Positions 64 to 16,019 of a stretch of 16,611 nt of DNA are shown piece after piece. Source of the DNA: a virus. Numbering within the stretch: position 1 is the first letter of the stretch; every line of letters begins with the position of its first letter. A program made the translations under genes and the position numbers. The stretch lies in the UHGV virus genome UHGV-0310400; one strand, written 5' to 3'. A model generated the notes under the pieces. It worked only from the letters and a program-made list of their open reading frames with translations. It did not search any database and was not told where the DNA came from.

Positions 64-140
64 GGAACGGTCTGCGTTGTCGGGAAGATACGTGATCTGA
101 TCCTTCAACTCAGCAAAAGTTCGATTTATTCAACAAAGCC
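1..140 (-). mobile_element. Terminal segment of an IS903-group (IS5 family) insertion sequence; the element continues beyond the window start
   Basis: Minus-strand sequence reading inward from position 140 is GGCTTTGTTGAATAAATCGAACTTTTGCTGAGTTGAAGGATCAGATCACG..., which I recognise from memory as the IS903/Tn903 terminal inverted repeat and adjacent sequence, with a few substitutions. The outermost base of the inverted repeat is at 140. Not verified by alignment. Confidence 0.75.
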
Positions 141-1384
141 AAATCACCAGCAAATAATCCGTGATCAGTAATGCGAATATAAGCGACTTGCTGATTTGCT
201 GCTTTCGTTATACCACCATAAACGCGAAGGCTGCGACTCATTGGGCGATCCCACAACTCTGCAACCTGCAGTTTATTTCCTCTCACGGTCCGCGTCTCAA
301 TTACAGCAAAAAGGCGATTTCTGACAACCCCCATACTCATGCAGTGATAGTTAACTGTGGGATAGTTTTCATGTAAATCTGTAAGCCATTCCGGCGTTGT
401 CCAGGTCTTCCCGTCATCTCCTGAGCGAACCCATGCAACATGGAGGTTATTTACACCATGGCGGTCTCCAGCCATAAAAGGCGCATAGATGACATTGTCA
501 TATACAAACGTTTTATCCTGCGTCCAGGCGTTGTACCACGGTGTATCTGTAATTTTAAATAACTCTCCCTGGATAAAATCTTCAGAAGCATAAAAAAGAG
601 GCTGGCCCGGTATTCTCTCAAATAAAAAACGAGCATTTTTAAATCGACTGACATCCGGAAGAGTTGATACTTTAAAAGTAAGCCCTAATCCGTCAATTTT
701 ATAACCTGGAGATGAGGCTTCAAGGCACGCGCTTATTGCAGTGGAATCGTCATTTATACCATCACCAACAGCTCCAAAATCTTTGGGGCTAATAGCATCA
801 CGCATTTTATCCTGGAACGTTCGGTACACAGCCCCAGAACCATACTGAATAAACCAACCAAAACCACCAACAACTCCGGCGATTGCAGCATCGACATAAT
901 TACGCATTGAGCGATTATTTACAGCGTCCTGCTCAAATGATGGATCTGCAAGGTTAGAAATTTTGTTTTGCTTTGCATCGTAATATTTTGCAAGCAGAGA
1001 GGGCTTCATCAATGCACGTCTGAACCACCCAAAACATTGCTGGATCAGCATCGTCAGGTAGTCAAAGGCATCTTCATGCACTTCGGGGAAAAATTTTCCC
1101 TGATTGCGAAGGTCTGTGTCCTGCACTACATCAAGCACACGATCTATCGTAATTCGCCATCCAGTAGCAAGCGGAGACGGAAGAACCACAGAACCGCCAC
1201 TATAAGTGCCCGCCCCAGTTACCGTATAACCGGTATCCAGGACCAATTCTGTTACGTTCCCGTTCAGGTCAGACACCTGAACAACCAGGTCTGATTTTCT
1301 GAAAATTCGAAAAGTATACGGAAACGATGTCGTAACGCCGTTACCGGTGTATTCGTTGTGGTCAACTTCGGTTGAGACCGTCAT
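110..1384 (-). pseudogene. Tail fibre/tailspike gene (T7 gp17 position), 3' end truncated by IS insertion at 140/141; native sequence is 141-1384
   Basis: The 424-aa ORF has an N-terminal segment (EYTGNGVTTSFPYTF...VLDTGYTVTG...) resembling tail-attachment domains of podovirus fibres and tailspikes. It carries a DFGAVGDGINDDSTA motif (plus 758-781) typical of pectate-lyase-like beta-helix depolymerases, and an Asp-box-like SGDDGKTW (plus 401-424). The last 10 codons and the stop lie inside the IS inverted repeat (110-140). SD GGAG precedes the ATG at 1384. Confidence 0.6.
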
Positions 1385-1487
1385 GTTAAATCTCCAGATA
1401 GTCGCAGCACCCGTTGCGCCGCATATCTGGTTATTCTATTACCTGAAAAACCATATATGGATAAAAAGACTATAAATACCAATAGAT

Positions 1488-1504
1488 ATTACCTTTCGGG
1501 TAAT
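1488..1504. promoter_or_regulatory. 17-bp dyad operator-like site, copy 1 (ATTACC-TTTCG-GGTAAT)
   Basis: Perfect 6-bp inverted half-sites separated by 5 bp, in the divergent intergenic region between the tail fibre gene and the 85-aa gene. Same half-sites recur at 2608, 2701 and 3768. Confidence 0.5.
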
Positions 1505-1540
1505 TTGCAAAACGTGCTGGATAGCAAACAAATTATTTGT

Positions 1541-1560
1541 TACTGTATAAACATACAGTT
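1541..1560. promoter_or_regulatory. LexA (SOS) box
   Basis: TACTGTATAAACATACAGTT: CTGT (1543-1546), 8-nt AT-rich spacer, ACAG (1555-1558). Matches the enterobacterial LexA consensus TACTGT-N8-ACAGTA. Lies about 20 bp upstream of the SD/ATG of the 1580 gene. Confidence 0.7.
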
Positions 1561-1579
1561 ATTGCATGGAGAAGATAAG

Positions 1580-1837
1580 ATGCAGCAGTATCACTATCCA
1601 CTGGAAGACGGATTTACCGAAAGGATTCACACGCCGGGAGGCGTCAGGTCACTGGTGGAGGGATCGCACTTGATGAAATTACTCCGGGATCTCGATAAGG
1701 ATGGATTTAATGTCGATGGCCCACTTGCCGAACTGACTGCACTGATTAACTACGTCACCAGCTCACAGATGTCTATGCAGGATCTGCAAACACATCTCGA
1801 CTATTGTGCCGAACAATTACGAAAACAAACCCGGTAA
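1580..1837 (+). CDS. Small (85 aa) SOS-controlled antirepressor-like protein, paralogous to the C-terminal domain of the Bro-N antirepressor at 2986-3696
   Basis: ATG at 1580 is preceded by GGAGA (1568-1572). The track ORF from 1457 would run through the operator and LexA box, so the shorter start is preferred. Residues GVRSLVEGSHLMKLLRDLDKDGFNVDGPLAELTALINYV...DLQTHLDY align by eye with GVLGLTENSLLMNLLNQLQEDGHDVSGAAAELTTMFCYI...DIQTHAEY of the 2986 gene. Confidence 0.6.
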   Translation: MQQYHYPLEDGFTERIHTPGGVRSLVEGSHLMKLLRDLDKDGFNVDGPLAELTALINYVTSSQMSMQDLQTHLDYCAEQLRKQTR

Positions 1838-1844
1838 ATTTAAA

Positions 1845-1860
1845 GGCCGCAAGAGCGGCC
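1845..1860. terminator. Bidirectional intrinsic terminator hairpin between convergent genes
   Basis: GGCCGC-AAGA-GCGGCC perfect 6-bp GC stem, flanked by AAATTTAAA upstream and TATCGTTTCGCTTT downstream. Sits between the stop of the 1580-1837 plus gene and the stop of the 1860-2588 minus gene. Confidence 0.6.
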
Positions 1861-2588
1861 TATCGTTTCGCTTTGTGCTCGTCCCAGCACGTTTTGCACC
1901 ATGCCATTAAGCCGTCCGCATTTTGATTATTAGGGTAAAAGCTGGTCCGTTTTCTGCGGACATTACAAATTGGGCACCACTTCATATGGCGTGTATTCTT
2001 TGGGCCATCGAGGCACCTTGCACACCACTTAGTCAATCCATCTGGATTTTTTGACGATTTCCGGAATTTGTCATATGGAAGGTTTATTCTGCATCGCAAA
2101 CACTGCTTGCGGCCACTTGAAACTCTGTTAGCTGATTCTTCTTTTGGCGGCGATACAGAAGGTATTCTTGCTGGCTCTGATACTGCCTGAGGTGCTTTTT
2201 TAGATGACTGAGACGATATGTCATCACCAGGGAATCTTCCATGATATGCCGGACGCGTTGACACTCCAGGTGGAAGCTCAGCTGTAAACGGCTTTGGCTG
2301 AATCAGTTGCCTCTCTTTTGCTAACTCCTGCTGTTTATAATATGTCTGGATTACCGCACTATCATAAGCAGGAGGTACGGAAATATCAGGCGCGTTACCT
2401 CCAGTTTTTTGAAACTGAGTAGATGTGTGTTCTATCACCTGTGTACGACTAATCGTTACCTCCCCATCTTCGGTCTTTATCGTTTTGTTCTGATTAACGA
2501 CCGTACGATCAGAGATCTTAGTCTTGTTCTGGTTGATAACGTAAATAATCACCGCAACCACACCAACAACTATCCAGAAAACTTCCAT
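1860..2588 (-). CDS. Membrane-anchored protein with N-terminal TM helix, Pro/Ser-rich linker and C-terminal tandem Cys4 zinc-ribbon-like repeats; function unknown
   Basis: 242-aa ORF. N-terminus FWIVVGVVAVIIYVI is hydrophobic. C-terminus has two repeats, CLRC-x22-WCARC and CPIC-x23-WCKTC, each with DGL just before the second Cys pair. Stop codon abuts the terminator hairpin. Confidence 0.6.
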   Translation of the reverse strand: MEVFWIVVGVVAVIIYVINQNKTKISDRTVVNQNKTIKTEDGEVTISRTQVIEHTSTQFQKTGGNAPDISVPPAYDSAVIQTYYKQQELAKERQLIQPKPFTAELPPGVSTRPAYHGRFPGDDISSQSSKKAPQAVSEPARIPSVSPPKEESANRVSSGRKQCLRCRINLPYDKFRKSSKNPDGLTKWCARCLDGPKNTRHMKWCPICNVRRKRTSFYPNNQNADGLMAWCKTCWDEHKAKR

Positions 2589-2829: not shown

Positions 2830-2985
2830 ATGCGTTAAGCACAGCTATATCCGAATTATGGTGGGCTGGGCAGGGGTCCGAAAGGACGCCGGTACCACTT
2901 AGGCCGGTACGCCAACCTTGTCCAGTTCACCACCAGTAATTGGCGTTGCGGTGGTGATTAAAATCACTAAGTGGAGATAACCACC

Positions 2986-3696
2986 ATGGCTAATGCTCAA
3001 ACTTCCATCTTCAAATTTGAATCTGTTAACCCTATCCGTTCCATCATTATCGATGGCCAACCATGGTTTGTAGCCCAAGACGTTTGTAGTGCGCTGCGTA
3101 TCCAAAACGTCACCCAAGCACTTGAAAAACTGGATGATGATGAAAGGTCTATGTTCAACATAGGGCATGAACATCGTGCAATTTTTGACAGCCGAGTAAA
3201 AGAGATCAACATCATCTCCGAGTCAGGCCTCTACACACTGATCCTCCGCTGCCGCGACGCAGTGACACCAGGCACTATCCCCTACCGCTTTCGTAAATGG
3301 GTTACAGGTGAGGTTCTTCCTCAGATCCGCCGCACCGGAAGCTACATTAAAAACTCGCTCCCGCAGGAAGAACGCATAAAGATGGTTGCCGACCAGGTAG
3401 CCAACGCCACGGCGTCAGCAGTAATGCAGGCGATGAAGATAGAGAACAAAACCTACAGCGCCCCACTGAAGCCCGGCTACCGTAGCCTGATTCATTCGCC
3501 GTCTGGTGTTCTCGGCCTGACGGAGAACTCACTGCTGATGAATTTGCTGAACCAGTTGCAGGAAGACGGGCACGATGTATCGGGCGCGGCGGCGGAGCTG
3601 ACAACCATGTTTTGCTACATCGTTGGTGTGAGTAAATGCCTGCGTGATATCCAGACTCACGCGGAGTACATCAACGACAAAGCAGGATTCTTCTGA
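2986..3696 (+). CDS. Phage antirepressor with N-terminal Bro-N domain
   Basis: ATG at 2986 is preceded by GGAGA (2973-2977); the track ORF from 2971 uses an upstream GTG. N-terminus IFKFESVNPIRSIIIDGQPWFVAQDVCSALRIQN matches the Bro-N signature (F.F....IR....DG.PWF.A.DV...LG). C-terminal approximately 70 aa are paralogous to the 1580-1837 product. Confidence 0.8.
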   Translation: MANAQTSIFKFESVNPIRSIIIDGQPWFVAQDVCSALRIQNVTQALEKLDDDERSMFNIGHEHRAIFDSRVKEINIISESGLYTLILRCRDAVTPGTIPYRFRKWVTGEVLPQIRRTGSYIKNSLPQEERIKMVADQVANATASAVMQAMKIENKTYSAPLKPGYRSLIHSPSGVLGLTENSLLMNLLNQLQEDGHDVSGAAAELTTMFCYIVGVSKCLRDIQTHAEYINDKAGFF

Positions 3697-3809: not shown

Positions 3810-4019
3810 ATGGGATTTTGGTTCGCTCGTACAAAAACGAGGGATAATGCACCCAGCCCTCAGGCAAAAAATACAGAAGTTCCGGCGTCAGCGCAGGTTA
3901 ACAAGCGTGGTGGTGTGTATATCTCATCACAGCAAATTTCTGAGCTTCCTGAGGTTAAGGAGATGCGTCGTCTCGCTGCTGCAATCGTTAAACAGGATCT
4001 TGCCACTGTAAGGAAATAG
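3810..4019 (+). CDS. Small (69 aa) hypothetical protein, first gene of the cargo operon
   Basis: Strong SD AGGAGG (3800-3805) 4 nt before the ATG at 3810. Stop TAG overlaps the GTG start of the next gene (TAGTG). Preferred over the alternative-frame ORF 3787-4011, which lacks an RBS. Confidence 0.5.
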   Translation: MGFWFARTKTRDNAPSPQAKNTEVPASAQVNKRGGVYISSQQISELPEVKEMRRLAAAIVKQDLATVRK

Positions 4020-4882
4020 TGTTGTTAGCTCTTCTAATTATCCCCATTCTGGTTAGTGGTTATATTATGATAACCGCTAACCAGTATCATTATTTCCGTT
4101 TATACCGACATGAAGGCCAGCTTCTTTATATGAAAGTAGCTGCATTAGGTACATATTGCCTTGTTGCTTCTGTAATAATTGCCGCATTTATAAAATATAA
4201 ATATCCTGATTTTCACCTAGTTCACGATATGGTGGAAACTTTTAATGTAACGTCAAAACCAGAAACAGATAGAATTTACATGTGGCTACTTCTTCTGTCA
4301 GTCACATCAATTTGCTTCTCTTTGTGTTATGTATCTTTTGTTTGGCTAAAAGATCTTCTTTTAGGTTGTTTTTATAAACGTGATATTTATGACAAAATAT
4401 CAGAGGCAATGAAAGCTAGGGTATTGCGAAAAACGTACTCCCAGGGTTCTTTAGATTTGCTATTGCTTGATGCAATCGAATCAGATCCTAAGAAACCAAT
4501 GTTAATTACTTTATCATCAAATAAAGTATACGTTGGAATAATAAATGGTTCTGGTGAGCCAACGGAAAATCAAGGGCCACACCAACACATATCTTTTGTT
4601 CCTTTAATGTCAGGGTACAGAAACAAAGAAAATTTATCTGTTACATTTACAAACGCTTACCCAGGTGAAATCCAAATTAAGCGCAGTGCTGCGATAAAAG
4701 GGATAAGCAAAAAGAAAGTTCAAGGTCTAGAAATTATGGTATCTATAGACGAAATAAGTCATATATCATGGTTTGACTTTGAAGTATATAAGGCAACAAA
4801 TAACAAAGTAGAAACAAAGGGTCATGTTGTTAATGTGACCAAAAATGGTCGCAACATATACTACAGAAGTGGCAGGAAATAA
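4019..4882 (+). CDS. Multi-pass membrane protein (about 3 TM helices) with a soluble C-terminal domain of roughly 170 aa; AT-rich cargo gene of unknown function
   Basis: 287-aa ORF. Hydrophobic segments LLALLIIPILVSGYIMI, MKVAALGTYCLVASVIIAAFI and YMWLLLLSVTSICFSLCYVSFVWL. Base composition is visibly more AT-rich than the flanking virion genes. GTG start is coupled to the upstream stop; an internal ATG at 4067 is an alternative. Confidence 0.65.
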   Translation: MLLALLIIPILVSGYIMITANQYHYFRLYRHEGQLLYMKVAALGTYCLVASVIIAAFIKYKYPDFHLVHDMVETFNVTSKPETDRIYMWLLLLSVTSICFSLCYVSFVWLKDLLLGCFYKRDIYDKISEAMKARVLRKTYSQGSLDLLLLDAIESDPKKPMLITLSSNKVYVGIINGSGEPTENQGPHQHISFVPLMSGYRNKENLSVTFTNAYPGEIQIKRSAAIKGISKKKVQGLEIMVSIDEISHISWFDFEVYKATNNKVETKGHVVNVTKNGRNIYYRSGRK

Positions 4883-4907
4883 ATTTTACGCAGTTTAGGT
4901 GGCTTAT

Positions 4908-5411
4908 ATGGATAATACTATCTTAGGCGCATTGATAGGTGCTGTTATTGCTATAGTTTCCACTTATATAAATGCAGGACAAGGATACAAAAACAGCATA
5001 AGATTAGAGCGACAAAAAATATTAAGGGATAAACGCGAGCAATTATTTATAAATTGTATACTTACTAAAAAAGTCATAGATTCAAGCACAATTACCATTC
5101 TCAATTTCGTAAAAAATGCCAGATACCACTCTGATAGTAAATTTGACGTATCAAGAGCGAATCCGTTGCAAACGATGGAAATGCTAATAAACATATACCT
5201 TCCTGAGTATAAAAAAGACTTACAAGAACTCAATAATGCGTATCAAGAATTTCACAAATACTACTCTCAATATACATGTGCACATACCTTCAAAAATATG
5301 CCTGATAATGAGAAGTCGAGGTTTATTGAGGAGGCTGATTTTTATGCAAAAAAGATATATGGCAAACTTAATGATATTAAGGACAAGATATCATTAAACT
5401 CAATAGTATAA
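4908..5411 (+). CDS. Single-pass membrane protein (N-terminal TM helix plus soluble domain of about 140 aa); AT-rich cargo gene of unknown function
   Basis: ATG at 4908 with SD AGGTGG (4897-4902); the track ORF starts at an upstream GTG at 4899. N-terminus NTILGALIGAVIAIVSTYI is hydrophobic. Very AT-rich. Followed by a GC-rich palindrome and the terminator at 5496-5513. Confidence 0.6.
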   Translation: MDNTILGALIGAVIAIVSTYINAGQGYKNSIRLERQKILRDKREQLFINCILTKKVIDSSTITILNFVKNARYHSDSKFDVSRANPLQTMEMLINIYLPEYKKDLQELNNAYQEFHKYYSQYTCAHTFKNMPDNEKSRFIEEADFYAKKIYGKLNDIKDKISLNSIV

Positions 5412-5462
5412 CAGCGATACTGCCGCTGACGGCTCCCGCTGCGGTGGGCGTTCTGCGGATTC

Positions 5463-5474
5463 CCGCCCGGGCGG
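5463..5474. repeat. Perfect 12-bp GC palindrome CCGCCCGGGCGG inside a short GC-rich intergenic segment
   Basis: The segment from about 5415 to 5485 is strongly GC-rich between two AT-rich genes and contains this palindrome plus flanking CCGCTG/CAGCGG repeats. Confidence 0.4.
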
Positions 5475-5495
5475 CGGTGGCATTCGTTAAAAACA

Positions 5496-5513
5496 AGGCC
5501 GCGAAAGCGGCCT
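5496..5513. terminator. Bidirectional intrinsic terminator between convergent cargo genes
   Basis: AGGCCGC-gaaa-GCGGCCT 7-bp stem. On the minus strand it is followed by TTGTTTTT, on the plus strand by TGTTTGAT. Lies directly after the stop of the 5520-6371 gene. Confidence 0.6.
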
Positions 5514-5519
5514 GTTTGA

Positions 5520-6371
5520 TCACTGTGCAGTTTTCGCTGATCGATTTTCAGCTCTAAATTCAAGAACCGTTTCAATATTTCTTTCCTTCAGCATATCAAT
5601 AACATTTTTATTCATTTGACTATCACTGGTTAATAACTGGTAAACGTCGCTTCTCTCTTTATCAGAGTTTTCTTTAACAGCTGCTTTGCATGCCAAATGC
5701 TTATTGAAATTTTCTACATCGCTAGTACAGGAATTTACGGCTGCTGATGAAATATCAGACGCTGAAGAAACACCATCATCCAAACGTTTTATAGCATTTT
5801 CTATACATGAGTTAAGGGAATAAACGACAACTGAGCGATACCCTTCAGACGCACACCATTCTAAATTTCTTGAAGGATCGAGTGGTTTTACTTCGCTGGA
5901 TTGAATTAACTTGTCAAAAACTGACTTATATTCAATCTGTTTTTTATCTATAGCCCATACTTCAGTAGCTGATTTATAATTCCCCGTATGCCTATTAACA
6001 TCAAATCCATGTTTTATAAGCAAATCTGCCCATGAAAGATTTATTGATTCATTGTTATGAGGCCATTTTCCTGTCAGAACCGCCCCCATAGACCCCATAT
6101 ATCCGCCATATGATGGTATAGCACCATGGCTCAGTAACTTCTCAGCAACCACAGGGCAATTAATTACATAAGAGGCGTAAAGCCCATTCCATAAAGCCCC
6201 TCTATAGTAATCGCCACGATTAGGTTCTTTTAAGTCGATAGCCTTTGATAATTGTTCACACGTTTTGCATGCATCAAAGTTATCCTTATTGCATTGCAAT
6301 GAACTGGCAGCTGTAGGATTTACAGAGACTATTGAAAGCACTATGCCAAAAAACAAATTTATTTTTTTCAT
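5520..6371 (-). CDS. Secreted/periplasmic protein with cleavable signal peptide; AT-rich moron coupled to the last virion gene; function unknown
   Basis: 283-aa ORF. N-terminus MKKINLFFGIVLSIVSVNPTAASS is a classical Sec signal peptide. Multiple cysteines in the mature part. Start lies 2 nt from the stop of the 1129-aa gene. AT-rich relative to the virion genes. Confidence 0.65.
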   Translation of the reverse strand: MKKINLFFGIVLSIVSVNPTAASSLQCNKDNFDACKTCEQLSKAIDLKEPNRGDYYRGALWNGLYASYVINCPVVAEKLLSHGAIPSYGGYMGSMGAVLTGKWPHNNESINLSWADLLIKHGFDVNRHTGNYKSATEVWAIDKKQIEYKSVFDKLIQSSEVKPLDPSRNLEWCASEGYRSVVVYSLNSCIENAIKRLDDGVSSASDISSAAVNSCTSDVENFNKHLACKAAVKENSDKERSDVYQLLTSDSQMNKNVIDMLKERNIETVLEFRAENRSAKTAQ

Positions 6372-6372
6372 C

Positions 6373-9300
6373 CTATTTCATCTGCTCTTCAACTTTATTT
6401 AGTAATGGTGATATCGCCCACAGGTTCTGAAAAGGTAGCATTTTACGGACCGCGTGGGTTTGCTGGCTGTCAAATTCTCCGTTAAGTACACCATTCGCAA
6501 CCGTCGCGGCATCACCGCCAAGATCAAAGGTAGGACCAAGTAAAGCACCAATAGCATTACGACTCTGAAACCTTGATACCGGAGGCGCACCAAACATCGC
6601 GCCAAGACCAAACCTACCACCGCTTATGTTCTCAACGGTATTCAGCGGCTCAGAGAGCCAGCCAAGCATTCCGCCCCGGTCGATCCCCTCTTTCACAAGG
6701 TTATTCCAGCTGTAGTCAATATCGCGACCGCTTAACTTCTGTTTCATCATATAGACCATTGAGCCAAGCGCAATCGTGCCAAGCGCACCAAGATAGAATG
6801 CAGCATCGCCCTGCTGGATACCAGATACCAGCACCCTGTTATGCTGTGCGAAGATAAACGTTTTGAACTGCGTGATCATCTTCCAGCCTTCTTTACTAAA
6901 AAACAGCGGTGTATCACCTACGCCAGGCGTTACAATCACTGAGTCTACATCTTTCAGCACTGCAGACTGGAAAATCTCTCTAGCGAAACGGTCATCCCAC
7001 AGATGACTATGCCCGGTTAACAGCCCGTCCATATCCTCTCCGTGCTTCCCGAATTGCTCCCCGATTCGACGCAGAACATCTTCATTGATGCCGACCTGTG
7101 CCATCTTCCGCATTTCACTTTTGGAGAGCGTGCCACCAGCAGAAACTTGGCGAGCCGCGTCAAGTATCCTCGACTGCACTATCATCCCAGACCATGATTT
7201 AAGTGCGCTGTTCCACTGATTCATCAGCGTCCAGTTACCGAATTTCTGCGTCATCCAGTTCAGACCTCGCTCAGCGGCGCTTCTCCGGCTATAGGGGTCA
7301 GTAAGATCCGCTATAGCCTTTGTACGCGTAGACAGGACATAATCAAGCCCAACGGCCATTTCTCGCAAATCCCTGGTTGCAATTTTCACTGAGTCCATAT
7401 TTTTAAGCATGCTTACCATTGGTCCGAGAGATTTTCTCAGGCCATGCTGCATCATCGGTCGCATCAGATCAGTTGCAGCGGAGACAGTCATTCCACCAAG
7501 CAAACGGAGGAAGTTAATATTCCTAGCAACTCGCCCGGCACGAACAAAGAAACTGCGTGGATCTTGAGGTGCACCGTAAGTACCAAGCAGTCGATCACGC
7601 ATAGCCGTAATATCCCTAATATCAGCCTCCCGTTGCTTCTCAAGAACTGCACGTCGTTTAGGTGTTTTAGCCTCTTTTATTAGCCGGGTATATTCCTCAC
7701 TAACCTGACGGATTTGCTCCCCCATATCTTTACGGCCAAACTGCGCAGTCAGCTCAATTTCTGGTGCCACCTGCCGGAGATAACTTTCCATGATGTAGTT
7801 AACATCTGATTCAAGAAAATCTTCTATACGCTCATCAGGAATAAGCAGCGTTCTGCTTTTAGTGAAACCAGCCCGACCAACGAGTCTCTCTGGGATAATA
7901 TCGGCTGGTACAAGCCCGGAAGGTGCGCCTATTATTTTATTCACGATCTCGTCAGCAGCGTCCTCTGCTTCCTCTCGGGATAGAGGCTCCATCTGCTTCA
8001 GTGCTCGTTCGCGGCTTGCATTCAGCCTTGTGGTTGAATTTGCCCGTTTTTGCAGTCGGCGAAGCTCAGAACGATATTTCCGTGGATTATCCAGCAACTC
8101 CATATGGCGCTGATAGACAGGAAGCTCACTCTTTGCCTGCGCTATATCATCAAGGCGTGTTTTAAGGTCAGAGCTTTCTTTCATCATTCTTGCCTGAAGT
8201 TTTTCTGATGAAGTCTCGGCCAACTCTTTTTCTATTCTTGTAAGACGCGCCTGTGTGTCAGTCTCCTGAGATATAAGCTTATTTCGTTTATCCAGTTCTT
8301 CCATGAGTAGAATTTTTTTACCAGACCATTTCTCCGCTTCAGCGATTTCACTAGCGAGAGCATCAGCGCGCGGTGCCGATTCCTCTGCAGTTTTTAGCAA
8401 TGAATTTATCCTTTCAATTCGCTGACCTGCCTTGTCAGCACCTTTGGCACTAATCCCTTGTATCCAGTTGGCAATTCGCCCTCTGAATTCAGTGCGGTCG
8501 GAAAGTATCTTATCGAACTTATAAATGCGGGGAAGATAACTTTTCGCCGTCACGACATCGATATCCTCAGGAAGGATCCCCAGTTCCTGCATACGGGCTT
8601 TTGTGATCTCGAAAATGGGGCGGATTCTGGCGGCTGCTTGTGAAACCTCAGGAATATCACTCTGATCACCACGGCGCATGGCCATGCCAACAGCTTCATT
8701 GAAATCAATAAAGTTCATCCTCTTCACGCCGCGGGCGCTAACAGATTTGCTGTACTGCTGATAAGCATCACTAGTGGCTTCCATCTGCTTATAAAGCATG
8801 GCGTCGTATTGCTTAATCTTAGTCTCGACTGCCGTAAACGTAGCCAACCCCTCATCATTTTTGGCGAAGAAATAGTTATTTTCGGCAAGCTGCTGGTTAA
8901 TCTGACGGGAGACAAGAGATGGTGATTGCGCCAAGCGGCCAGCAGGAGTGACACTCAACGTTTTGTTAGCAAGTCCAAGTCCAGCGAGCTGTTCCTGATC
9001 GAGTGTGGTATTGAAAACCTGAGCTGCACCAATGCTTTGAGGAGAATCCATACCTCGCAAATGATTACCTACTGAGTTAACCACTGCCTCGCGCGCGCTA
9101 GGTCCAGCAAGTAGCTGTGCACCAGCACCAAGGATCCCACCAACGAGAGCATCAACAACAACGTTCGATACGCTCTCCATCGGTGAGCGAGCTTCCTGAG
9201 TGGCCTGTAATGCGGCTTCTGATACTCCCCCACCAGCAGCATTCGCCAGGGCAAAACGCCCTGCCGTCTCAGCAATACTTCCTCCACGCGCTACCGCCCC

Positions 9301-9762
9301 TACAGGGATGAACATTGCAGCCACATTAACCGGGTCTATCATTCCCATTGCTAAGCTTGAAATAGTACCAGCACCACCCATTTCAGATAGATATTCTCTA
9401 TCTGTTCTTTGCTTATCGATTCGATGTTTAATTGCCATTGTTTCTTCATGCGAACCGGAGTTGATAAACGAATCTGCAAAATCTTCATAGCCTTTAATAT
9501 CTGCTGCATCGTTATCAAATGGGTTATATCCTTCAACCCTGTCAAACTGACTGAAAGGAGCACTGGCAATAAAGCTACCCAGCGTGTTATCTATACGAAA
9601 TGCTGCTTGTCTAGACCTTTGAACGCGTTGATCACTGGTAAATGGGTTCACAGCAGAAAGCAAAGAAGGTGTTTCCATATAGAAATTACTGTCATCAGGT
9701 GCTGCTATTTGCTGAATATCCTCGCCAAGCAACTCTTTAGGATCCTGTTCATATATCGGCAT
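6373..9762 (-). CDS. Large internal virion/ejection protein (T7 gp16 position)
   Basis: 1129-aa ORF. Gly/Ala-rich hydrophobic N-terminal region (GGAGTISSLAMGMIDPVNVAAMFIPVGAVARGG...) and a central coiled-coil-like charged region (..EKELAETSSEKLQARMMKESSDLKTRLDDIAQAK..). Assigned by position and size in the gp11-to-gp16 series; no direct homology recognised. Confidence 0.55.
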   Translation of the reverse strand: MPIYEQDPKELLGEDIQQIAAPDDSNFYMETPSLLSAVNPFTSDQRVQRSRQAAFRIDNTLGSFIASAPFSQFDRVEGYNPFDNDAADIKGYEDFADSFINSGSHEETMAIKHRIDKQRTDREYLSEMGGAGTISSLAMGMIDPVNVAAMFIPVGAVARGGSIAETAGRFALANAAGGGVSEAALQATQEARSPMESVSNVVVDALVGGILGAGAQLLAGPSAREAVVNSVGNHLRGMDSPQSIGAAQVFNTTLDQEQLAGLGLANKTLSVTPAGRLAQSPSLVSRQINQQLAENNYFFAKNDEGLATFTAVETKIKQYDAMLYKQMEATSDAYQQYSKSVSARGVKRMNFIDFNEAVGMAMRRGDQSDIPEVSQAAARIRPIFEITKARMQELGILPEDIDVVTAKSYLPRIYKFDKILSDRTEFRGRIANWIQGISAKGADKAGQRIERINSLLKTAEESAPRADALASEIAEAEKWSGKKILLMEELDKRNKLISQETDTQARLTRIEKELAETSSEKLQARMMKESSDLKTRLDDIAQAKSELPVYQRHMELLDNPRKYRSELRRLQKRANSTTRLNASRERALKQMEPLSREEAEDAADEIVNKIIGAPSGLVPADIIPERLVGRAGFTKSRTLLIPDERIEDFLESDVNYIMESYLRQVAPEIELTAQFGRKDMGEQIRQVSEEYTRLIKEAKTPKRRAVLEKQREADIRDITAMRDRLLGTYGAPQDPRSFFVRAGRVARNINFLRLLGGMTVSAATDLMRPMMQHGLRKSLGPMVSMLKNMDSVKIATRDLREMAVGLDYVLSTRTKAIADLTDPYSRRSAAERGLNWMTQKFGNWTLMNQWNSALKSWSGMIVQSRILDAARQVSAGGTLSKSEMRKMAQVGINEDVLRRIGEQFGKHGEDMDGLLTGHSHLWDDRFAREIFQSAVLKDVDSVIVTPGVGDTPLFFSKEGWKMITQFKTFIFAQHNRVLVSGIQQGDAAFYLGALGTIALGSMVYMMKQKLSGRDIDYSWNNLVKEGIDRGGMLGWLSEPLNTVENISGGRFGLGAMFGAPPVSRFQSRNAIGALLGPTFDLGGDAATVANGVLNGEFDSQQTHAVRKMLPFQNLWAISPLLNKVEEQMK

Positions 9763-12509
9763 TATTTGCCCCCTGCGTATATATTGCTCGGAAGGTAATT
9801 GGCTGAACCATAACCGAATGGTTTGGTCAGATCTGGAGGAGTATATCCATCTTTATTGCTGAACTGCGGCAGCGGATTGCCTTCTCTCCGCACTCTAGCC
9901 TCATCAACACGCTGTTGCTGGAACTGAATGGTTTGCCTGTACATTGGAGATGTCAGCTGATCCGGCTTGAAACGAACAGGGAGACCATTTTCTCCAATAT
10001 AATTTCTCGGTTCTATCGCTCCGTTTGCGTCAGGCTGTAAAACCATAACAGCATAACTCCTATCCCTTGCCGTAAGGCCATCAGAAACAAGTATTAAGTC
10101 CGTATCACTGCGAGGACCGCCAAAGGATTTTGATTTAAGCTCGCGTTTTTCCTGCTCCCACTGCCCCTGTATCCAGTTACCAGCACCATTATTTACTCCG
10201 TACAATGCCTCAGGTGCATACTTCATAACCTCTGCTTTGCCATTAACCGTAGAAACTCCCCAAGTGGTTCTGATCATGGCATTGGTCATTTTCTCAGCCT
10301 GTTCTGCATCGCCACCTGTCTGTACAAAGTTAGCATCGTAAATTGTCTGGTAATCTCGCTGATAGGCCGCATTTGATTTTCCTGGATCGGTAATATCCGG
10401 AGACCACGAACCAAAGGAAGTCAGACTGCTGGCGTTATTTTGTGCAGCAGTTGCCCTCGCCGCGACATATTTTTTGTCTCGCATGGCAGTGGAAAGCATC
10501 TGTTTCATTCGGTCATCCTGTTGGAACACCTGGCTGTAAGCCATATCAACAGCCTTATCCTCCGGCACGCCAGCGCGGGAATAATCGTAAACCTTGCCGT
10601 AAAATGCCATCGTACTTTTATCAAGTGTTGCCGCTGCCGCCGGATTATTATCGAATAACTGACCGTAGAATTTTGCCATCGGGACAACCAGCGCAGGATC
10701 TCTTGATGTTGCTCCACTGTTAAGCATTGTTTTAACCTGAGTTGGTATCATGCCGCTTTTAGTTGTGACGGTGACCAGTGTATTGATGCTCTGCGGATCA
10801 GATATGGAAAACGAAGGCGCGATATCCTGCGCGAAATAACGGTCTACCGCTGCCTGATTGTTTTTGTCGTTCGGGTCCAGCGGGAAGTTATTTTGCATTG
10901 AAGACACGAACCTGTTTCTTCCCTGCTGAATCTCCCACTCCCTATCCATCTCTTTAAATTTGGCCTGCATTTTCTCCCAGCGTTGCTGGTTAGCTGCAAA
11001 TCCAGGAGCGTTTGGATCCTGTGGACGTAAACGTTCAAGAATGTCTTGTCGTCCTTCTGGAGTGAGGTCTTTAGCGGCACCAATGACACCTCCATATTGT
11101 ATCTGCGCCTGCATATCCTTCCACTTCATAGCGCCAATGCGCGGACCATTGGCCCGGATAAAATCGTCCTCAGAAGGTAACTGCTCAGGTTTCAATCCTT
11201 CATCAAGGGCTGAATATGCATCTTTAACTACGGTGCTAAGCTGGTCCGCATACTGCTGGCGGTACTGATTTCTCAGCTCATTAGCCTGCCTCAATGCCTG
11301 TATTTGCATTTGAGGGCTCATAGCATCAAATGCCGCATTGCCCGTATAACGCTTAGGTGAATCAAGGTTAGTTAGACCAAGGGCTGCCGAGATACCAGTT
11401 TCAAGCTGTTCGGTGCTATAAGGCATACTGCCATTTTCGTGTTTAATAATCCCAGCACATAAAGCAGCTAGTGTCTTTGGGTTAGAGATATCAAGCTGAT
11501 CATTCTCCCCAACACCAAGCTCACCACACAATGCCCTAATATAAGCATCAGTATTATTACCATCACTAGCCGGAGCATAACGATTAACAATCTCGCTAAC
11601 GGTGTCATAGCCTTGACGCTGGTAAGACAACATATTTTTACCCAACGCGCGGATTCCATGCTCAGGGGTAGCAAACGTTGCAAAACGTCCATCGCTACCG
11701 ATCTGACCTTCCCACGGGTTAGATTTGCTCGCTTCAATATTACCAGGATTATTATTACGTAAACCACGAGCATCCAATGAATTACCATGTGACATTGCAC
11801 GGCTCACACCGTCAAGATCCCCTGGCTCTCCATTAACCTGAAGAAACTCGTTGTATTTTTGAGCGATATTTCCTATCCATGCTTGCTGCCCCATTTGTTC
11901 CTTGAGCTGAGTTTTCTGCTGAACACGCCACTCATCAGGAAGCCCATGCGCATCAGCGTATTGATCAATAGATTCAAATCGCTGCTTGGCTAAATCGACA
12001 AATGCTTGGTTATCGCTATATAGCCCCGCAGACTGAGTGACAGCCAATGCATTTCCTGACAAATACGTTTGATCTTGGAATTGCTGAAACTGCCCAACTT
12101 CATATCGACGTGCCTGATTGTAATAAGACTGCATAGACTGCTGGAGTTGAAAGGATAATTTATTCCTTTCCTCACTTTCAGGAATTGAGCCTAATAATGC
12201 CTGAGCCCTTTCCTGCATATTTTTCATAACAGCGTCACTCTGACCAAGAGCGTTTTTACCCTGTTTAGAAATCAGCCCATTTTCTGGGTTGTTAATCTGG
12301 TCATCTGCAAATTGGTTAAATTGCAGTAACGCCTCCTGGGCCATAGCAACATTCGCTTTCTGCCTGGCTTCACCATATGCCACCGCATACTGATCTGCGA
12401 CATTCGCCAGCACCTGACCTGCTTGAGGAACATCGAAGGTTTGAAAACCACCGGTTTGCACACCACGACTTTGCACCTGGCGTCCGGATGTAGTAGGAAC
12501 AACAGGCAT
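9762..12509 (-). CDS. Internal virion/ejection protein (T7 gp15 position) with a conserved motif block that may be a cell-wall-active domain
   Basis: 915-aa ORF, start overlapping the upstream stop. Residues about 245-330 (plus 11520-11777) contain RGLRNNNPGNIEASKSNPWEGQ...GRFATFATPEHGIRA, which looks like a conserved enzymatic motif; the family is not identified with certainty. Confidence 0.55.
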   Translation of the reverse strand: MPVVPTTSGRQVQSRGVQTGGFQTFDVPQAGQVLANVADQYAVAYGEARQKANVAMAQEALLQFNQFADDQINNPENGLISKQGKNALGQSDAVMKNMQERAQALLGSIPESEERNKLSFQLQQSMQSYYNQARRYEVGQFQQFQDQTYLSGNALAVTQSAGLYSDNQAFVDLAKQRFESIDQYADAHGLPDEWRVQQKTQLKEQMGQQAWIGNIAQKYNEFLQVNGEPGDLDGVSRAMSHGNSLDARGLRNNNPGNIEASKSNPWEGQIGSDGRFATFATPEHGIRALGKNMLSYQRQGYDTVSEIVNRYAPASDGNNTDAYIRALCGELGVGENDQLDISNPKTLAALCAGIIKHENGSMPYSTEQLETGISAALGLTNLDSPKRYTGNAAFDAMSPQMQIQALRQANELRNQYRQQYADQLSTVVKDAYSALDEGLKPEQLPSEDDFIRANGPRIGAMKWKDMQAQIQYGGVIGAAKDLTPEGRQDILERLRPQDPNAPGFAANQQRWEKMQAKFKEMDREWEIQQGRNRFVSSMQNNFPLDPNDKNNQAAVDRYFAQDIAPSFSISDPQSINTLVTVTTKSGMIPTQVKTMLNSGATSRDPALVVPMAKFYGQLFDNNPAAAATLDKSTMAFYGKVYDYSRAGVPEDKAVDMAYSQVFQQDDRMKQMLSTAMRDKKYVAARATAAQNNASSLTSFGSWSPDITDPGKSNAAYQRDYQTIYDANFVQTGGDAEQAEKMTNAMIRTTWGVSTVNGKAEVMKYAPEALYGVNNGAGNWIQGQWEQEKRELKSKSFGGPRSDTDLILVSDGLTARDRSYAVMVLQPDANGAIEPRNYIGENGLPVRFKPDQLTSPMYRQTIQFQQQRVDEARVRREGNPLPQFSNKDGYTPPDLTKPFGYGSANYLPSNIYAGGK

Positions 12510-13084
12510 CAGTAACCTCCTATTTTGAATCGGGAGTCAGAATTCATAAAACCTGAGTTAGATAACATTGGCGTCCCACCACTAGATGTACTTCCTTTAG
12601 AGAACGGACTCCACGTCCCACCAAACATCTGGTACGCACCGTATGCCTTCAGAGGCGCAGTGAGCAATGTTGTTGCTGCTCCCACATTCCCCTGTTTACG
12701 GGCTGAACTGGCTTCTGCTTTATAGTTGGCAGCCTGAACCTGATAACCGTAAGCCTCGCGTTGCGCGTTATTCACCGTCGTCAGCGAATCAAGAGCGCCG
12801 AACTGAGCAGTGTCACCAAATATATCCAGCGCGTTACCTGTAGATAAATCAGCGCCGGTCGCCCCCATTGTCGCCGCCTGTGTACCAAGCCGCTGTCGGG
12901 TCTCTCTGCGCCGTTGCTCAGCTTCAGCGTTACCTCTGTTTATTGCATCATTTGCCTGAGCTGTGGCTATATCTGCGTTCGCTTCTGCAACCTTCGAGGC
13001 ATACTTTCCCTGTTGGTACTGGGTGTATGCCTGAATGCCACTCATGGCGAGCATTGCGCCACCAGCAATAACCGGATCGCACAT
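12509..13084 (-). CDS. Small virion protein (T7 gp14 position), Ala/Gly/Gln-rich
   Basis: 191-aa ORF, close to the size of T7 gp14 (196 aa), coupled to both neighbours. Low-complexity Ala/Gln/Gly-rich composition. Assignment by synteny only. Confidence 0.45.
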   Translation of the reverse strand: MCDPVIAGGAMLAMSGIQAYTQYQQGKYASKVAEANADIATAQANDAINRGNAEAEQRRRETRQRLGTQAATMGATGADLSTGNALDIFGDTAQFGALDSLTTVNNAQREAYGYQVQAANYKAEASSARKQGNVGAATTLLTAPLKAYGAYQMFGGTWSPFSKGSTSSGGTPMLSNSGFMNSDSRFKIGGY

Positions 13085-13548
13085 TATTTTCTCTCCATGT
13101 GAAATCTGTGGAAATTAAGACCAAGAGCACCATAAGGCGCGGCTTCTTCAAGCCTGAATCCAAGCCAGTGCAGCCATGCTTTGGCAACATGGTTTCGCTC
13201 GTCGACGTAGTTTTCCAGGCGCGGATAAACTGCCAGCATCTGCTGCAATACAGGGCGGCAGTGGCGAAGAAATGTCTTCTGATATTTTTCAATACGGCTG
13301 GTTCCTACCAGCCAGGGCGTACCATTGCCACCGATCATTGACGCCGGAGATACGCCAAACATGGTTACCAGTTCTCCGTTCGCGAACCCTGACCAGGCCA
13401 TAGTCGCAGTGCGCAGACCAACACGCAGCGCATCTTTGGTAGTCATCAGCGATACCGCATACAGTTCGTCAATATCAGCCTGACGAACATCCGGCAAAAT
13501 CATCTGAAGATGCTCTTCGGTAGCGGGAATAATTTGAACATCGATCAT
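13084..13548 (-). CDS. Small virion-associated protein (T7 gp13 position)
   Basis: 154-aa ORF, overlapping the stops and starts of both neighbours. Assignment by synteny only. Confidence 0.4.
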   Translation of the reverse strand: MIDVQIIPATEEHLQMILPDVRQADIDELYAVSLMTTKDALRVGLRTATMAWSGFANGELVTMFGVSPASMIGGNGTPWLVGTSRIEKYQKTFLRHCRPVLQQMLAVYPRLENYVDERNHVAKAWLHWLGFRLEEAAPYGALGLNFHRFHMERK

Positions 13549-16019
13549 CAGAATCCCCCAACAGTAAGGCGAGGAATAACGGCAAGAACAGACAGCGGCA
13601 ACGGGTCAAGCTGACGGATTTTTACACGTCCGTTTTTGCCCCAGTTACTGTCCAGTTTCACTTCTACTTTTCCGGTAGCATCATCAACAGGATCATCGTA
13701 GAACTCGAATTCACGCTGTGGATATTCGTACCATTTGCCGCCGGGCGTAGTCGCCCAGATGCCGCGACTGGCATTCACAACCAGAGTAACGGACGGGATC
13801 ACCTGTTTTTTGTCCAGCAGCGTTTCCTGTCCGTTAATGTTGATATCCAGTGTTTCGAATTCAGCAGTTATTGGCAGGCCGATGTGCACAACAGCCCCAG
13901 GTGATTCCAGCGTGACGGCACCTCCGGAAACCACTTTCTGTGGTTCCACGTTCGCATCAGAGAGAATGTTTACGGTCTGGCCTTCAAGATGAGACAGGCC
14001 TCCAAATGTCCGGCGCGCCATCTGCCAGTTCGTGGTGGCCACATTCCTGAGGGATGGCGGGACGTTCCTGTTAGCACGAACCACTACTGCGGTATTGCTG
14101 GTTACAGAAATAATGTCGCAACGTAATTCTTTTGACACTTCATCGCCAGTATCAGGATCAGTTCCGGTATAAGGGAACTGTAGTTGCGCACCGACATCAC
14201 TACTGGTGAAGTACGCACCACCAGAAACACTGATTGTATATTCCTCGCGGTAATCCCATTCGCCAGAACCACCAGTGATGATCATCGTTCTGTCAGACGT
14301 ATTTCTTCCATCATAGCTAAGGCCAGAATCAACAAAGAAAGCATCTTCATCGCTGGTAAATAAACGGCTGGACAGTCGCTCGATGTATCTCACTGTTTGC
14401 CCGTTAACGGTTCGGTTAACGACGAAATACACCGCATCTTCATTGCCTTCGCTGATACTGCATGTGCTTTCATATTTTCCGGTACTGGATTGTGGTGCCC
14501 ATGCAAAAACCTGCTGATCACGCAAATAGGTCATCACCAGTAATTTACCGTCATCACGAATGCAGAAGGCGCTGGAGTAAGGGACAATAGAGAAGCACCA
14601 GTCAACAATGCTGTGCTTCTGAAAAAGATGATTGGCAAGGATGGTCAGGTCGTTCCCCTGATAGCCGTCAACATCGAATGAGTAGGCCAGATCACGGACA
14701 ACACTGCCTTTCTCCTGGACGAACAGAGCAATATTCGCCACGGCAATTGGTGGGACATTGCTCGAGCCATTTGATCCCTGAGAGCTGAATGCAAATGATG
14801 ATGGGGTAAGCACTTTGTTCTGGTCGCCGGTGATGACGTACTCACCTCCGGAAGTCAGCGCCACCAGCGAACCGACATCAATCAGGTGGCGGATCTCATT
14901 AACCTGACGCCCGGCATAGGTGTAGATAATTCTGTCGTCATCCTGCGTAGGATTGCTTTTGCCAAAATCCTTATAATCCCCGGTACGGCTGACCCAGATA
15001 GTCTGAGGGAACGCAGTCGATGCGGCGAAGTAAAGACGTTGTTGATAATAAACAACAGTGCCAGGATAACCATTAACACTGTTCCAGGCATATTTAGCCC
15101 ATTTATAGCTGGCATTATCCTCGCCAACTACCTGCGAAGGGATATAGGAAATCACCTCGGCAGTTGCAGTAGTTCCATTTGCAGCAGTGATACGGGCAAT
15201 GCCAAAACCACTGTGCAGATATTCCCACTCAATGCCAGTATCATCATCACCGGATCCGCCCCAGCCATCCCATGATGTGCCTTCTGTATGCGAAGGGCGC
15301 AAAGTGCCTGTTTTGCCTACTGTAACGGCGCGATAGTAGTTACTGTCTGCACGGCGAATATCGCCAATTGACGTACTCTTACTGGTTTCCCATACCGGCA
15401 CAGAATCCACTGCAGGCTGTTCCAGATAGAACAATTTGCCTACCTGCTCCGCGCCAAAAATAGAGGCGCTTGCCGTTAACGTAATTGTCCCGGTGCTGGC
15501 GCTGGCATAAACCGTCACTGACTCGTCAATATTGATATCTTCAAATGGTCCGTTCTTCGTTACCACATCAACCAGTTGCCAGTTGTCATGCGCATAGCGA
15601 CGCAACTCTTTCGGCGGGTATGCCGGATGAACAAGCGTAAGCACGTCGGCGCTTTGCGTGAATTTAATTCGGAACAGATCGGCTTCAGTATATGGCGTGG
15701 CAATTTCATAAATAACATTGCTGCTGTTCAGCACCAACGCACCATCTTTGATAACGCGCATGTACTGGTGTCCGAACTCCAGAGCATAGGTCTGAACCGT
15801 CGAGAACTGGAACGGGATCAGGCGGCATTTCCGATTTGGGTATTTGGCGGCACCGACAAAACGCGTACCAGGTCGATTCTCAACGCCGCCATACTGCCGC
15901 ACGATAAAGTTATCGCACTTGCGCAATGCCACCTGGTACTTCGCCATGTCAATACGCCCGTACAACGACGGTCCAATCTCACCACCGGCAAAGCTGGGCT
16001 GGATCCAACTGATAGCCAT
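13548..16019 (-). CDS. Tail tubular protein B-like (T7 gp12 position)
   Basis: 823-aa ORF, comparable to T7 gp12 (794 aa), immediately downstream of the gp11-like gene with a TGATG stop/start overlap. Assignment by size and synteny. Confidence 0.55.
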   Translation of the reverse strand: MAISWIQPSFAGGEIGPSLYGRIDMAKYQVALRKCDNFIVRQYGGVENRPGTRFVGAAKYPNRKCRLIPFQFSTVQTYALEFGHQYMRVIKDGALVLNSSNVIYEIATPYTEADLFRIKFTQSADVLTLVHPAYPPKELRRYAHDNWQLVDVVTKNGPFEDINIDESVTVYASASTGTITLTASASIFGAEQVGKLFYLEQPAVDSVPVWETSKSTSIGDIRRADSNYYRAVTVGKTGTLRPSHTEGTSWDGWGGSGDDDTGIEWEYLHSGFGIARITAANGTTATAEVISYIPSQVVGEDNASYKWAKYAWNSVNGYPGTVVYYQQRLYFAASTAFPQTIWVSRTGDYKDFGKSNPTQDDDRIIYTYAGRQVNEIRHLIDVGSLVALTSGGEYVITGDQNKVLTPSSFAFSSQGSNGSSNVPPIAVANIALFVQEKGSVVRDLAYSFDVDGYQGNDLTILANHLFQKHSIVDWCFSIVPYSSAFCIRDDGKLLVMTYLRDQQVFAWAPQSSTGKYESTCSISEGNEDAVYFVVNRTVNGQTVRYIERLSSRLFTSDEDAFFVDSGLSYDGRNTSDRTMIITGGSGEWDYREEYTISVSGGAYFTSSDVGAQLQFPYTGTDPDTGDEVSKELRCDIISVTSNTAVVVRANRNVPPSLRNVATTNWQMARRTFGGLSHLEGQTVNILSDANVEPQKVVSGGAVTLESPGAVVHIGLPITAEFETLDININGQETLLDKKQVIPSVTLVVNASRGIWATTPGGKWYEYPQREFEFYDDPVDDATGKVEVKLDSNWGKNGRVKIRQLDPLPLSVLAVIPRLTVGGF

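Follow-up and report, generated by a model that had tools for sequence, protein, structure and literature searches.

The question raised by the 16,611-nucleotide virus genome UHGV-0310400, the whole of which is referred to here as the window, is why a gene for an apparently exported protein of 283 aa should stand immediately behind the gene for the largest internal virion protein of the phage, and what such a protein might do. The window is part of an epsilon15-like Escherichia coli prophage. An initial annotation had described the 283-aa gene as an AT-rich gene for a secreted protein, translationally coupled to the virion gene before it and bearing the signature of a moron, and had proposed either a superinfection-exclusion factor acting on incoming phage or a lysogenic-conversion or virulence factor. 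Here, we conclude that the gene very probably encodes a real exported periplasmic accessory protein and that this protein in all likelihood joins an ankyrin-like N-terminal domain (N-domain) to a new C-terminal domain (C-domain). With regard to function, a role in superinfection exclusion or immunity at the level of the cell envelope, which would fit the position of the gene and the precedents for it, is a possibility that we favor tentatively.

It is confirmed that the 283-aa open reading frame is a genuine gene. It starts with ATG, its translation (beginning MKKINLFFGIVLSIVSVNPTAASS) matches phrog_6118 over the full length (E value of 1.7e-200), and comparison with the Klebsiella-type copies, at 88% nucleotide identity, gave a dN/dS ratio of approximately 0.16, which indicates that the gene is functional and under purifying selection. 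In Escherichia phage EC.W1-9 (PP445227), which has been isolated, the gene occupies the matching position and its product is 99.6% identical. The GC content of the gene is 36.9% (28.2% at third codon positions [GC3]), compared with 48.1% (GC3, 43.6%) for the 1129-aa core gene and 46.3% for the whole window; the distinctly lower GC content reported in the initial annotation was therefore borne out, as was the start of the gene right behind the stop codon of the 1129-aa gene, since the junction reads TAG-G-ATG, with one base between the two codons. Seven nucleotides past the stop codon of the 283-aa gene there is a terminator-like hairpin, which ends the late operon, and an identical hairpin is found 3' of the Klebsiella-type gene copy and 3' of an alternative cargo gene in a Klebsiella phage.

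The case for export was built on inspection of the N terminus, on hydropathy and on conservation among homologues. Residues 4 to 18 form the sole hydrophobic segment of the protein by hydropathy; they are preceded by Lys2-Lys3 and followed by a c-region of small residues, with predicted signal peptidase I cleavage near Ser23/Ser24. This N-terminal signal is kept in all 15 aligned homologues (in Morganella, for example, it ends SGSALA before KC), and signal peptides are also present on the stand-alone relatives of both domains. Furthermore, eight cysteines (C27, C35, C38, C72, C173, C189, C215, and C228) are invariant among the 15 homologues, which are 38 to 89% identical; this conservation is consistent with disulfides, predicted from the sequence, that would be formed outside the cytoplasm. 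The Sec signal peptide and the cysteine-containing mature part that had been claimed for this protein were thus upheld. The lipobox [LVI][ASTVI][GAS]C is not present, since S-L-Q precedes Cys27, which places Gln at position -1, and L-A-K occupies the corresponding position in Morganella; for this reason, a reading of the protein as a lipoprotein of the Cor/Llp exclusion type was rejected.

The initial annotation had found no recognizable motif in the mature protein. That statement holds for Pfam (at E values of up to 10), NCBIfam, and PADLOC, none of which gave a match for the 283-aa protein; however, profile and fold searches point to an ankyrin-like N-domain and to a new helical domain. In an exhaustive profile search of 1.84 billion representatives, the protein emerged as a fusion of two modules, each of which also occurs on its own as a small exported protein. 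The stand-alone relatives of the N-domain are 160 to 170 aa long and were matched with E values of 1e-41 to 1e-27. Within the N-domain, the segments AEKLLSHGAIP..GG and ADLLIKHGFDVN resemble the ankyrin consensus; the family profile also matched, more weakly, eukaryotic ankyrin proteins with multiple repeats (P0061, E value of 2e-9, in 7 stretches), and the N-domain profile matched Ankyrin-1 (E value of 1.3e-6) and many DARPins in the PDB, the individual stretches being weak. A single-sequence search against the PDB returned DARPins only, at an E value of about 1, the Pfam models Ank and Ank_2-5 were not matched by the 283-aa protein, and the stand-alone N-domain relatives had no Pfam match either. 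A specific kinship with 7ubz, a protein of the Enterobacter cloacae type VI secretion lipase immunity complex, was considered and rejected, since the match was no better than that to other ankyrin proteins.

The C-domain carries the motif C-x9-LDDG(V/I)S-x-ASDI-x8-C, in which LDDG(V/I)SxASDI lies between two conserved cysteines. It was modeled as a helical bundle (pLDDT of 89.8) and is homologous to a family of exported proteins of 110 to 165 aa (hhalign probability of 99.0; E value of 3.6e-18). No specific PDB match was obtained for it, either with a profile against the PDB sequences or by fold, and a second large profile search returned unnamed proteins only, with no relative that carried a Pfam domain. 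For the 283-aa protein, Foldseek gave no significant match among viral structures, a literature search for accession number WP_000723561 had no result, and a word-indexed search of 5.8 billion proteins yielded only 22 homologue clusters, which came from E. coli, Klebsiella, Serratia, Morganella, and Providencia genomes and from metagenome assemblies. It is concluded that phrog_6118 is an uncharacterized family and that its disulfide-bearing helical C-domain is previously undescribed.

The stand-alone relatives of both domains come mainly from environmental and marine bacteria and from metagenomes, among them Thauera, Thiobacillus, Methylotenera, and the Tara samples. Of the genes for a C-domain alone, two (P0083 and P0069) are located 11 to 64 nucleotides downstream of CI-like repressors (HTH_3 plus Peptidase_S24) and are co-oriented with them, and a third is the neighbor of the integrase in a P4-like island of Thauera. 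A 480-aa metagenomic protein (P0054), which bears the source name "tol-pal system protein YbgF," consists of the N-domain fused to tetratricopeptide repeats; this fusion fits a periplasmic location and hints at a link of the N-domain to the Tol-Pal or peptidoglycan synthesis machinery. On marine metagenome contigs (L047 to L049), a stand-alone N-domain relative (P0089, at 7001-7585) is encoded approximately 2.5 kb downstream of an EH_Signature protein and an SNF2-type helicase. This pair resembles ZorC and ZorD of the Zorya system, and we presume that the region may be a defense island.

Every full-length homologue that was examined is found directly past the last and largest core gene and co-oriented with it. 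This fixed slot was seen in E. coli, Klebsiella, Serratia, Morganella, Providencia, one metagenomic contig, and two further viral contigs, next to core alleles of 937, 982, 1129 to 1133, and 1157 aa. As judged by protein identity, the 283-aa gene and the core genes have diverged in step: the 283-aa proteins of E. coli and Morganella are 41% identical and the two core proteins 55% and 44% identical, and the values for E. coli and Serratia are 61% for the 283-aa protein and 79% and 57% for the core proteins. In each lineage, the GC content of the homologue is 9 to 17 points below that of its neighbors, even at 40% protein identity. Since this gap has been kept across deep divergence, the AT-richness is an old and maintained property and not a sign of recent transfer, and recent horizontal acquisition was rejected as its cause.

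The occupancy of the slot varies among close relatives. One of these is Klebsiella phage ST512-KPC3phi13.3, with a 92.6% identical core protein; here the slot holds an unrelated 204-aa gene (phrog_3383), which is not exported but is equally AT-rich, between a matching core-gene end and a matching terminator hairpin; phage TL-2011b has no gene there at all. Among complete E. coli genomes, the 283-aa gene is found in 106 and the core gene in 120, the carriage being approximately 2%. In a second Morganella prophage of the same type, the slot is occupied by a 156-aa exported protein, P0073, that consists of the C-domain only, followed by a 227-aa protein with a signal peptide (L062, 9499-10182). 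From this comparison, the C-domain appears to be what the slot has in common. In Serratia and Providencia, a co-oriented gene for a membrane protein of approximately 100 aa, with several hydrophobic segments, lies 3' of the homologue (L006, 8850-9146; L057, 5838-6140), and the slot seems to gather envelope-targeted proteins.

Analysis of the expression signals placed limits on two of the original proposals. There is no Shine-Dalgarno sequence at a usable distance from the E. coli start of the 283-aa gene, and coupling by reinitiation after the core-gene stop is therefore plausible for this copy. The other homologues, however, are preceded by gaps of 11 to 176 nucleotides and by Shine-Dalgarno sequences of their own (in L043, a hairpin plus approximately 176 nucleotides separate the core gene from the homologue), so that translational coupling is not a feature of the family. 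Likewise, the comparison with a moron holds insofar as the gene is AT-rich, is optional or replaced in close relatives, and is followed by a terminator, but its low GC content is an old trait and no sigma-70-like promoter was found within 630 nucleotides upstream at the scan threshold, so that expression from the prophage, a property that defines a moron, is at most a possibility. The sole candidate, TTGACA plus TAAAAT (6434-6467, minus strand), falls within the last part of the 1129-aa gene, approximately 63 to 96 nucleotides upstream of the ATG; it combines a perfect -35 and a near-consensus -10 element, but their spacing of 22 nucleotides is noncanonical, which makes it a doubtful promoter. 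In the E. coli copy, the scan detected no terminator separating the 283-aa gene from the core gene.

How might such a protein act? We envision that the 283-aa protein leaves the cytoplasm by the Sec pathway, loses its signal peptide to signal peptidase I, and is held in the periplasm as a soluble, disulfide-stabilized protein, of which the ankyrin-like N-domain would be the protein-binding part and the helical C-domain a second part. It is encoded by an optional accessory gene, kept in one fixed slot, of epsilon15-like prophages that have T7-type gp14/15/16-like core proteins. Its periplasmic target would be a component deployed by an incoming phage, most likely the trans-periplasmic ejection conduit or the peptidoglycan-cutting domain of that conduit, and binding would block the entry of DNA and so bring about superinfection exclusion. 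In the E. coli copy, translation would depend on ribosomes that terminate on the core gene, which predicts synthesis together with the late operon. T7-type ejection proteins, which carry a transglycosylase, assemble into a conduit that spans the periplasm (PMC8954989), and a plausible target would therefore be present in that compartment. Bd3460 offers a precedent for the proposed mode of action, being a periplasmic ankyrin protein that inhibits peptidoglycan endopeptidases (PMC4686830). A precedent for the position is sieA of phage P22, which sits between the last ejection-protein gene (16) and the tailspike gene in 22 of 66 P22-like phages; its product, located in the envelope, prevents DNA injection, and the mutations by which phages escape are found in the ejection proteins gp16 and gp20 (PMC10883804). 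The exclusion idea gains support from this precedent, though of an indirect kind. The stand-alone C-domain genes that follow a repressor are at the other classical position of exclusion genes.

A more specific proposal, which we regard as rather doubtful, is that the C-domain with its LDDG(V/I)SxASDI motif is a new soluble periplasmic exclusion module that binds a gp14/15/16-type conduit or its transglycosylase and has been deployed both after ejection genes and downstream of a CI-like repressor, with the N-domain as an add-on that broadens or changes the range of targets.

Several observations weigh against an exclusion function. The gene is found with several core alleles and is absent beside a nearly identical one, so that there is no sign that it covaries with any particular target among the ejection proteins. 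The constancy of its position could result from nothing more than physical linkage, and where a gene lies says little about what it does. The region scanned yielded no sigma-70-like promoter, and the apparent dependence of the E. coli copy on late transcription would be unusual in an exclusion gene. In addition, PADLOC gave no match for the 283-aa protein, which is also without any sequence or topology relation to SieA.

Other explanations differ mainly in the partner that they assign to the protein or in the time at which it is made. It may be that the protein is an immunity factor or inhibitor directed against envelope-attacking enzymes other than the phage entry machinery, either as an orphan immunity protein against the type VI lipase or peptidoglycan hydrolase of a competitor or as a means by which the phage, late in infection, guards against its own transglycosylase or endolysin. 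This is unlikely: the score of 7ubz was no better than those of dozens of unrelated ankyrin proteins, and 7ubz was absent from the profile search against PDB sequences; no effector gene is nearby; and the endolysin type varies by host (GH19 in E. coli, Phage_lysozyme in Serratia, and Peptidase_M15_4 in Morganella), which argues against a specific endolysin partner. The protein could instead serve in lysogenic conversion or host interaction, being exported, released on lysis or in vesicles, and active on eukaryotic cells in the manner of ANKp of sponge-symbiont phages, which is phage encoded, has a signal peptide, and dampens macrophage phagocytosis and cytokine production (bioRxiv 10.1101/608950). 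The carriers do include extraintestinal pathogenic E. coli (such as strains IHE3034, where the locus is ECOK1_RS14685, and APEC O18) and Klebsiella pneumoniae, and disulfides would suit an extracellular life. However, the mainly environmental and marine origin of the stand-alone relatives of both domains speaks against such a role, the C-domain alone fills the slot in one Morganella prophage, so that the ankyrin part is dispensable there, and no dedicated route of secretion across the outer membrane is evident. We consider this explanation quite unlikely, and the earlier idea of a virulence factor gained no support.

Part of the expression signals would be accommodated by a purely lytic function, in which the protein is made only with the late operon, works in the periplasm of the dying cell, for instance to tune lysis or envelope breakdown or to keep progeny from being lost to cells already infected, and has no role in the lysogen. 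The TAG-G-ATG junction without a Shine-Dalgarno sequence, the failure to find an upstream promoter or, in the E. coli copy, a terminator behind the core gene, and the conserved position at the end of the operon are all in keeping with it. Nevertheless, a strictly lytic role appears improbable, given that the gene is dispensable in close relatives with the same core genes, that the stand-alone C-domain genes in repressor operons are at positions expressed in lysogeny, and that in L043 a hairpin and approximately 176 nucleotides intervene between the core gene and the homologue. The same conserved position, as the last gene of the structural core cluster, might suggest that the protein takes part in the virion or in its assembly, for instance as an accessory protein of the tail or core. 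This reading is extremely improbable and was rejected: the protein has a cleavable Sec signal and eight conserved cysteines, whereas tailed-phage assembly is cytoplasmic; phages that share a 92.6% identical core protein lack the gene or have another in its place; and no structural-protein homology was found for it.

If the 283-aa protein does block phage entry, as the exclusion reading proposes, it would act in soluble form in the periplasm as an exclusion factor directed against the delivery of podovirus genomes, and its small helical domain would be a reusable exclusion module in many prophages. Such a finding would bear on the host range of therapeutic phages against lysogens and would provide a handle on the assembly of the periplasmic conduit. 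The idea is directly testable, since the isolated phage EC.W1-9 carries the gene. The features on which these arguments draw are listed in Table 1.

Table 1. Positions in the window of the 283-aa gene, its parts, and the elements that adjoin it
Feature	Position	Strand	Basis or description
1129-aa internal virion (ejection/core) protein, last structural gene of the core cluster	6373..9762	minus	phrog_342 "internal virion protein," E value of 2e-234
Stop-start junction TAG-G-ATG of the 1129-aa core gene and the 283-aa gene	6369..6375	minus	Sequence; core-gene stop TAG at 6375-6373, single base at 6372, ATG at 6371-6369
CDS of the 283-aa exported protein	5520..6371	minus	List of open reading frames and translation; phrog_6118; RefSeq "hypothetical protein" of the WP_000723561.1 type
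Signal peptide, residues 1-24 (predicted)	6300..6371	minus	n-region MKK, h-region INLFFGIVLSIVSV, c-region NPTAASS
N-domain, residues ~25-160	5892..6299	minus	Cys-rich cap (C27, C35, C38, C72), then degenerate ankyrin-like repeats
C-domain, residues ~166-283	5523..5876	minus	Helical bundle with C173, C189, C215, C228
Intrinsic-terminator-like hairpin	5488..5513	minus	Hairpin scan (5513..5496); AGGCCGCTTTCGCGGCCT, then TGTTTTT

Near-identical prophages in RefSeq encode an epsilon15-type capsid staple, a Bbp16-family cement protein, a T7 gp14-family core protein, a GH19 endolysin, and an integrase. On the minus strand of the window, the order of genes is an 823-aa gene (a phage tail protein by RefSeq annotation), a 154-aa gene, a gp14-like gene, a 915-aa core gene with transglycosylase-type PHROG matches and a transglycosylase segment at about residues 246-381, the 1129-aa core gene, the 283-aa gene, and the terminator, past which lie a variable region with a BRO-N/Ant antirepressor and then an endosialidase tailspike. 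In comparison with TL-2011b (L009), the 823-aa, 154-aa, and gp14-like proteins of the window are 98 to 99% identical and the two large core proteins 29 to 42% identical; this drop in identity between 12509-16019 and 6373-12509 indicates a recombination joint between the gp14-like gene and the 915-aa core gene. The open reading frame for the endosialidase tailspike (110-1384, minus strand) ends at 424 aa, the intact gene of IHE3034 being approximately 1039 aa in length, and bases 1 to 140 of the window match thousands of sites on E. coli chromosomes and plasmids. These observations suggest that the end of an insertion sequence interrupts the tailspike gene, in which case the prophage of the source genome may be defective.

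Further genes lie between the terminator and the tailspike gene. A two-gene cassette on the plus strand (4019-5411; 32 to 34% GC) encodes proteins of 287 and 170 aa with hydrophobic N termini (phrog_3630 and phrog_36918). It has no PADLOC match, is complete in only 8 of 5,426 E. coli genomes, and apparently truncated a small gene for a "transmembrane anchored protein," of which a remnant is left at approximately 5416-5490; the cassette could be defense or abortive-infection cargo. That it forms one unit with the 283-aa gene was rejected, since it is complete in only those 8 genomes and the match mostly ends just short of the 283-aa gene. A 126-aa open reading frame (1457-1837, plus strand) matches phrog_450 and phrog_15539, as does the C terminus of the BRO-N/Ant protein (2971-3696, plus strand), and looks like a partial duplicate or the remnant of a second antirepressor. 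Finally, the region at 1860-2588 (minus strand) encodes a 242-aa protein (phrog_6762) with a hydrophobic N terminus and two C-terminal cysteine-rich repeats that match endonuclease VII, HNH, and Lar-like PHROG families; this combination of a membrane anchor with zinc-ribbon-like repeats is an unusual pairing.

The arrangement of the 283-aa gene is reminiscent of that of sieA in P22. Both are optional genes, present in a subset of phages, between the last ejection-protein gene and the antirepressor or tailspike gene of a temperate podovirus; the host genera (Escherichia, Serratia, Providencia, and Morganella) overlap, and both products are directed to the envelope, by prediction in the case of the 283-aa protein. 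The order of core genes, 283-aa gene, antirepressor, and tailspike in the window, with similar placement in all homologue contexts, is a positional analogy only. SieA is a polytopic inner-membrane protein of approximately 19 kDa that bears the motif FxRYPxEAxxFNK and whose gene has a putative promoter of its own, whereas the 283-aa protein is predicted to be a soluble, disulfide-bonded, two-domain protein and is encoded by a phage of the epsilon15/T7-core type without a detected promoter. The motif is absent from the 283-aa translation, in which the signal peptide segment is the only hydrophobic stretch, and a reading of the protein as a SieA homologue was rejected because of this different topology and the missing motif.

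In its ankyrin-like part, the protein recalls a class of periplasmic ankyrin inhibitors and immunity proteins that comprises Bdellovibrio Bd3460, chain 7ubz_A of the E. cloacae type VI secretion system lipase toxin/immunity complex, Pseudomonas AnkB, and Rickettsia RARP-1. Unlike the members of this class, it has repeats that are too degenerate for the Pfam Ank models, a four-cysteine cap, and the new C-domain, and it is phage encoded. Like ANKp of the sponge "Ankyphages," it is an ankyrin protein of phage origin that has a signal peptide at the N terminus and lacks a transmembrane domain (bioRxiv 10.1101/608950). However, ANKp was found through Pfam ankyrin signatures and acts on eukaryotic immune cells, whereas the 283-aa protein escapes the Pfam Ank models, has an additional domain, and has relatives that are common in bacteria that are not host associated.

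Likewise, the gene resembles the lambdoid morons (Bor and Lom of lambda, Cor of HK022 and phi80, and Llp of T5), which are AT-rich and optional, are located at or within late operons, are followed by a terminator, and encode envelope products. These morons encode lipoproteins or outer membrane proteins, have their own promoters, and have known targets such as FhuA or serum resistance; the 283-aa protein differs from them in that it has no lipobox and its gene no detected promoter. Based on these comparisons of sequence and position, the 283-aa gene is best described as a predicted prophage envelope accessory gene that combines a degenerate ankyrin module with a new helical module, the latter of which recurs at positions of the exclusion type.
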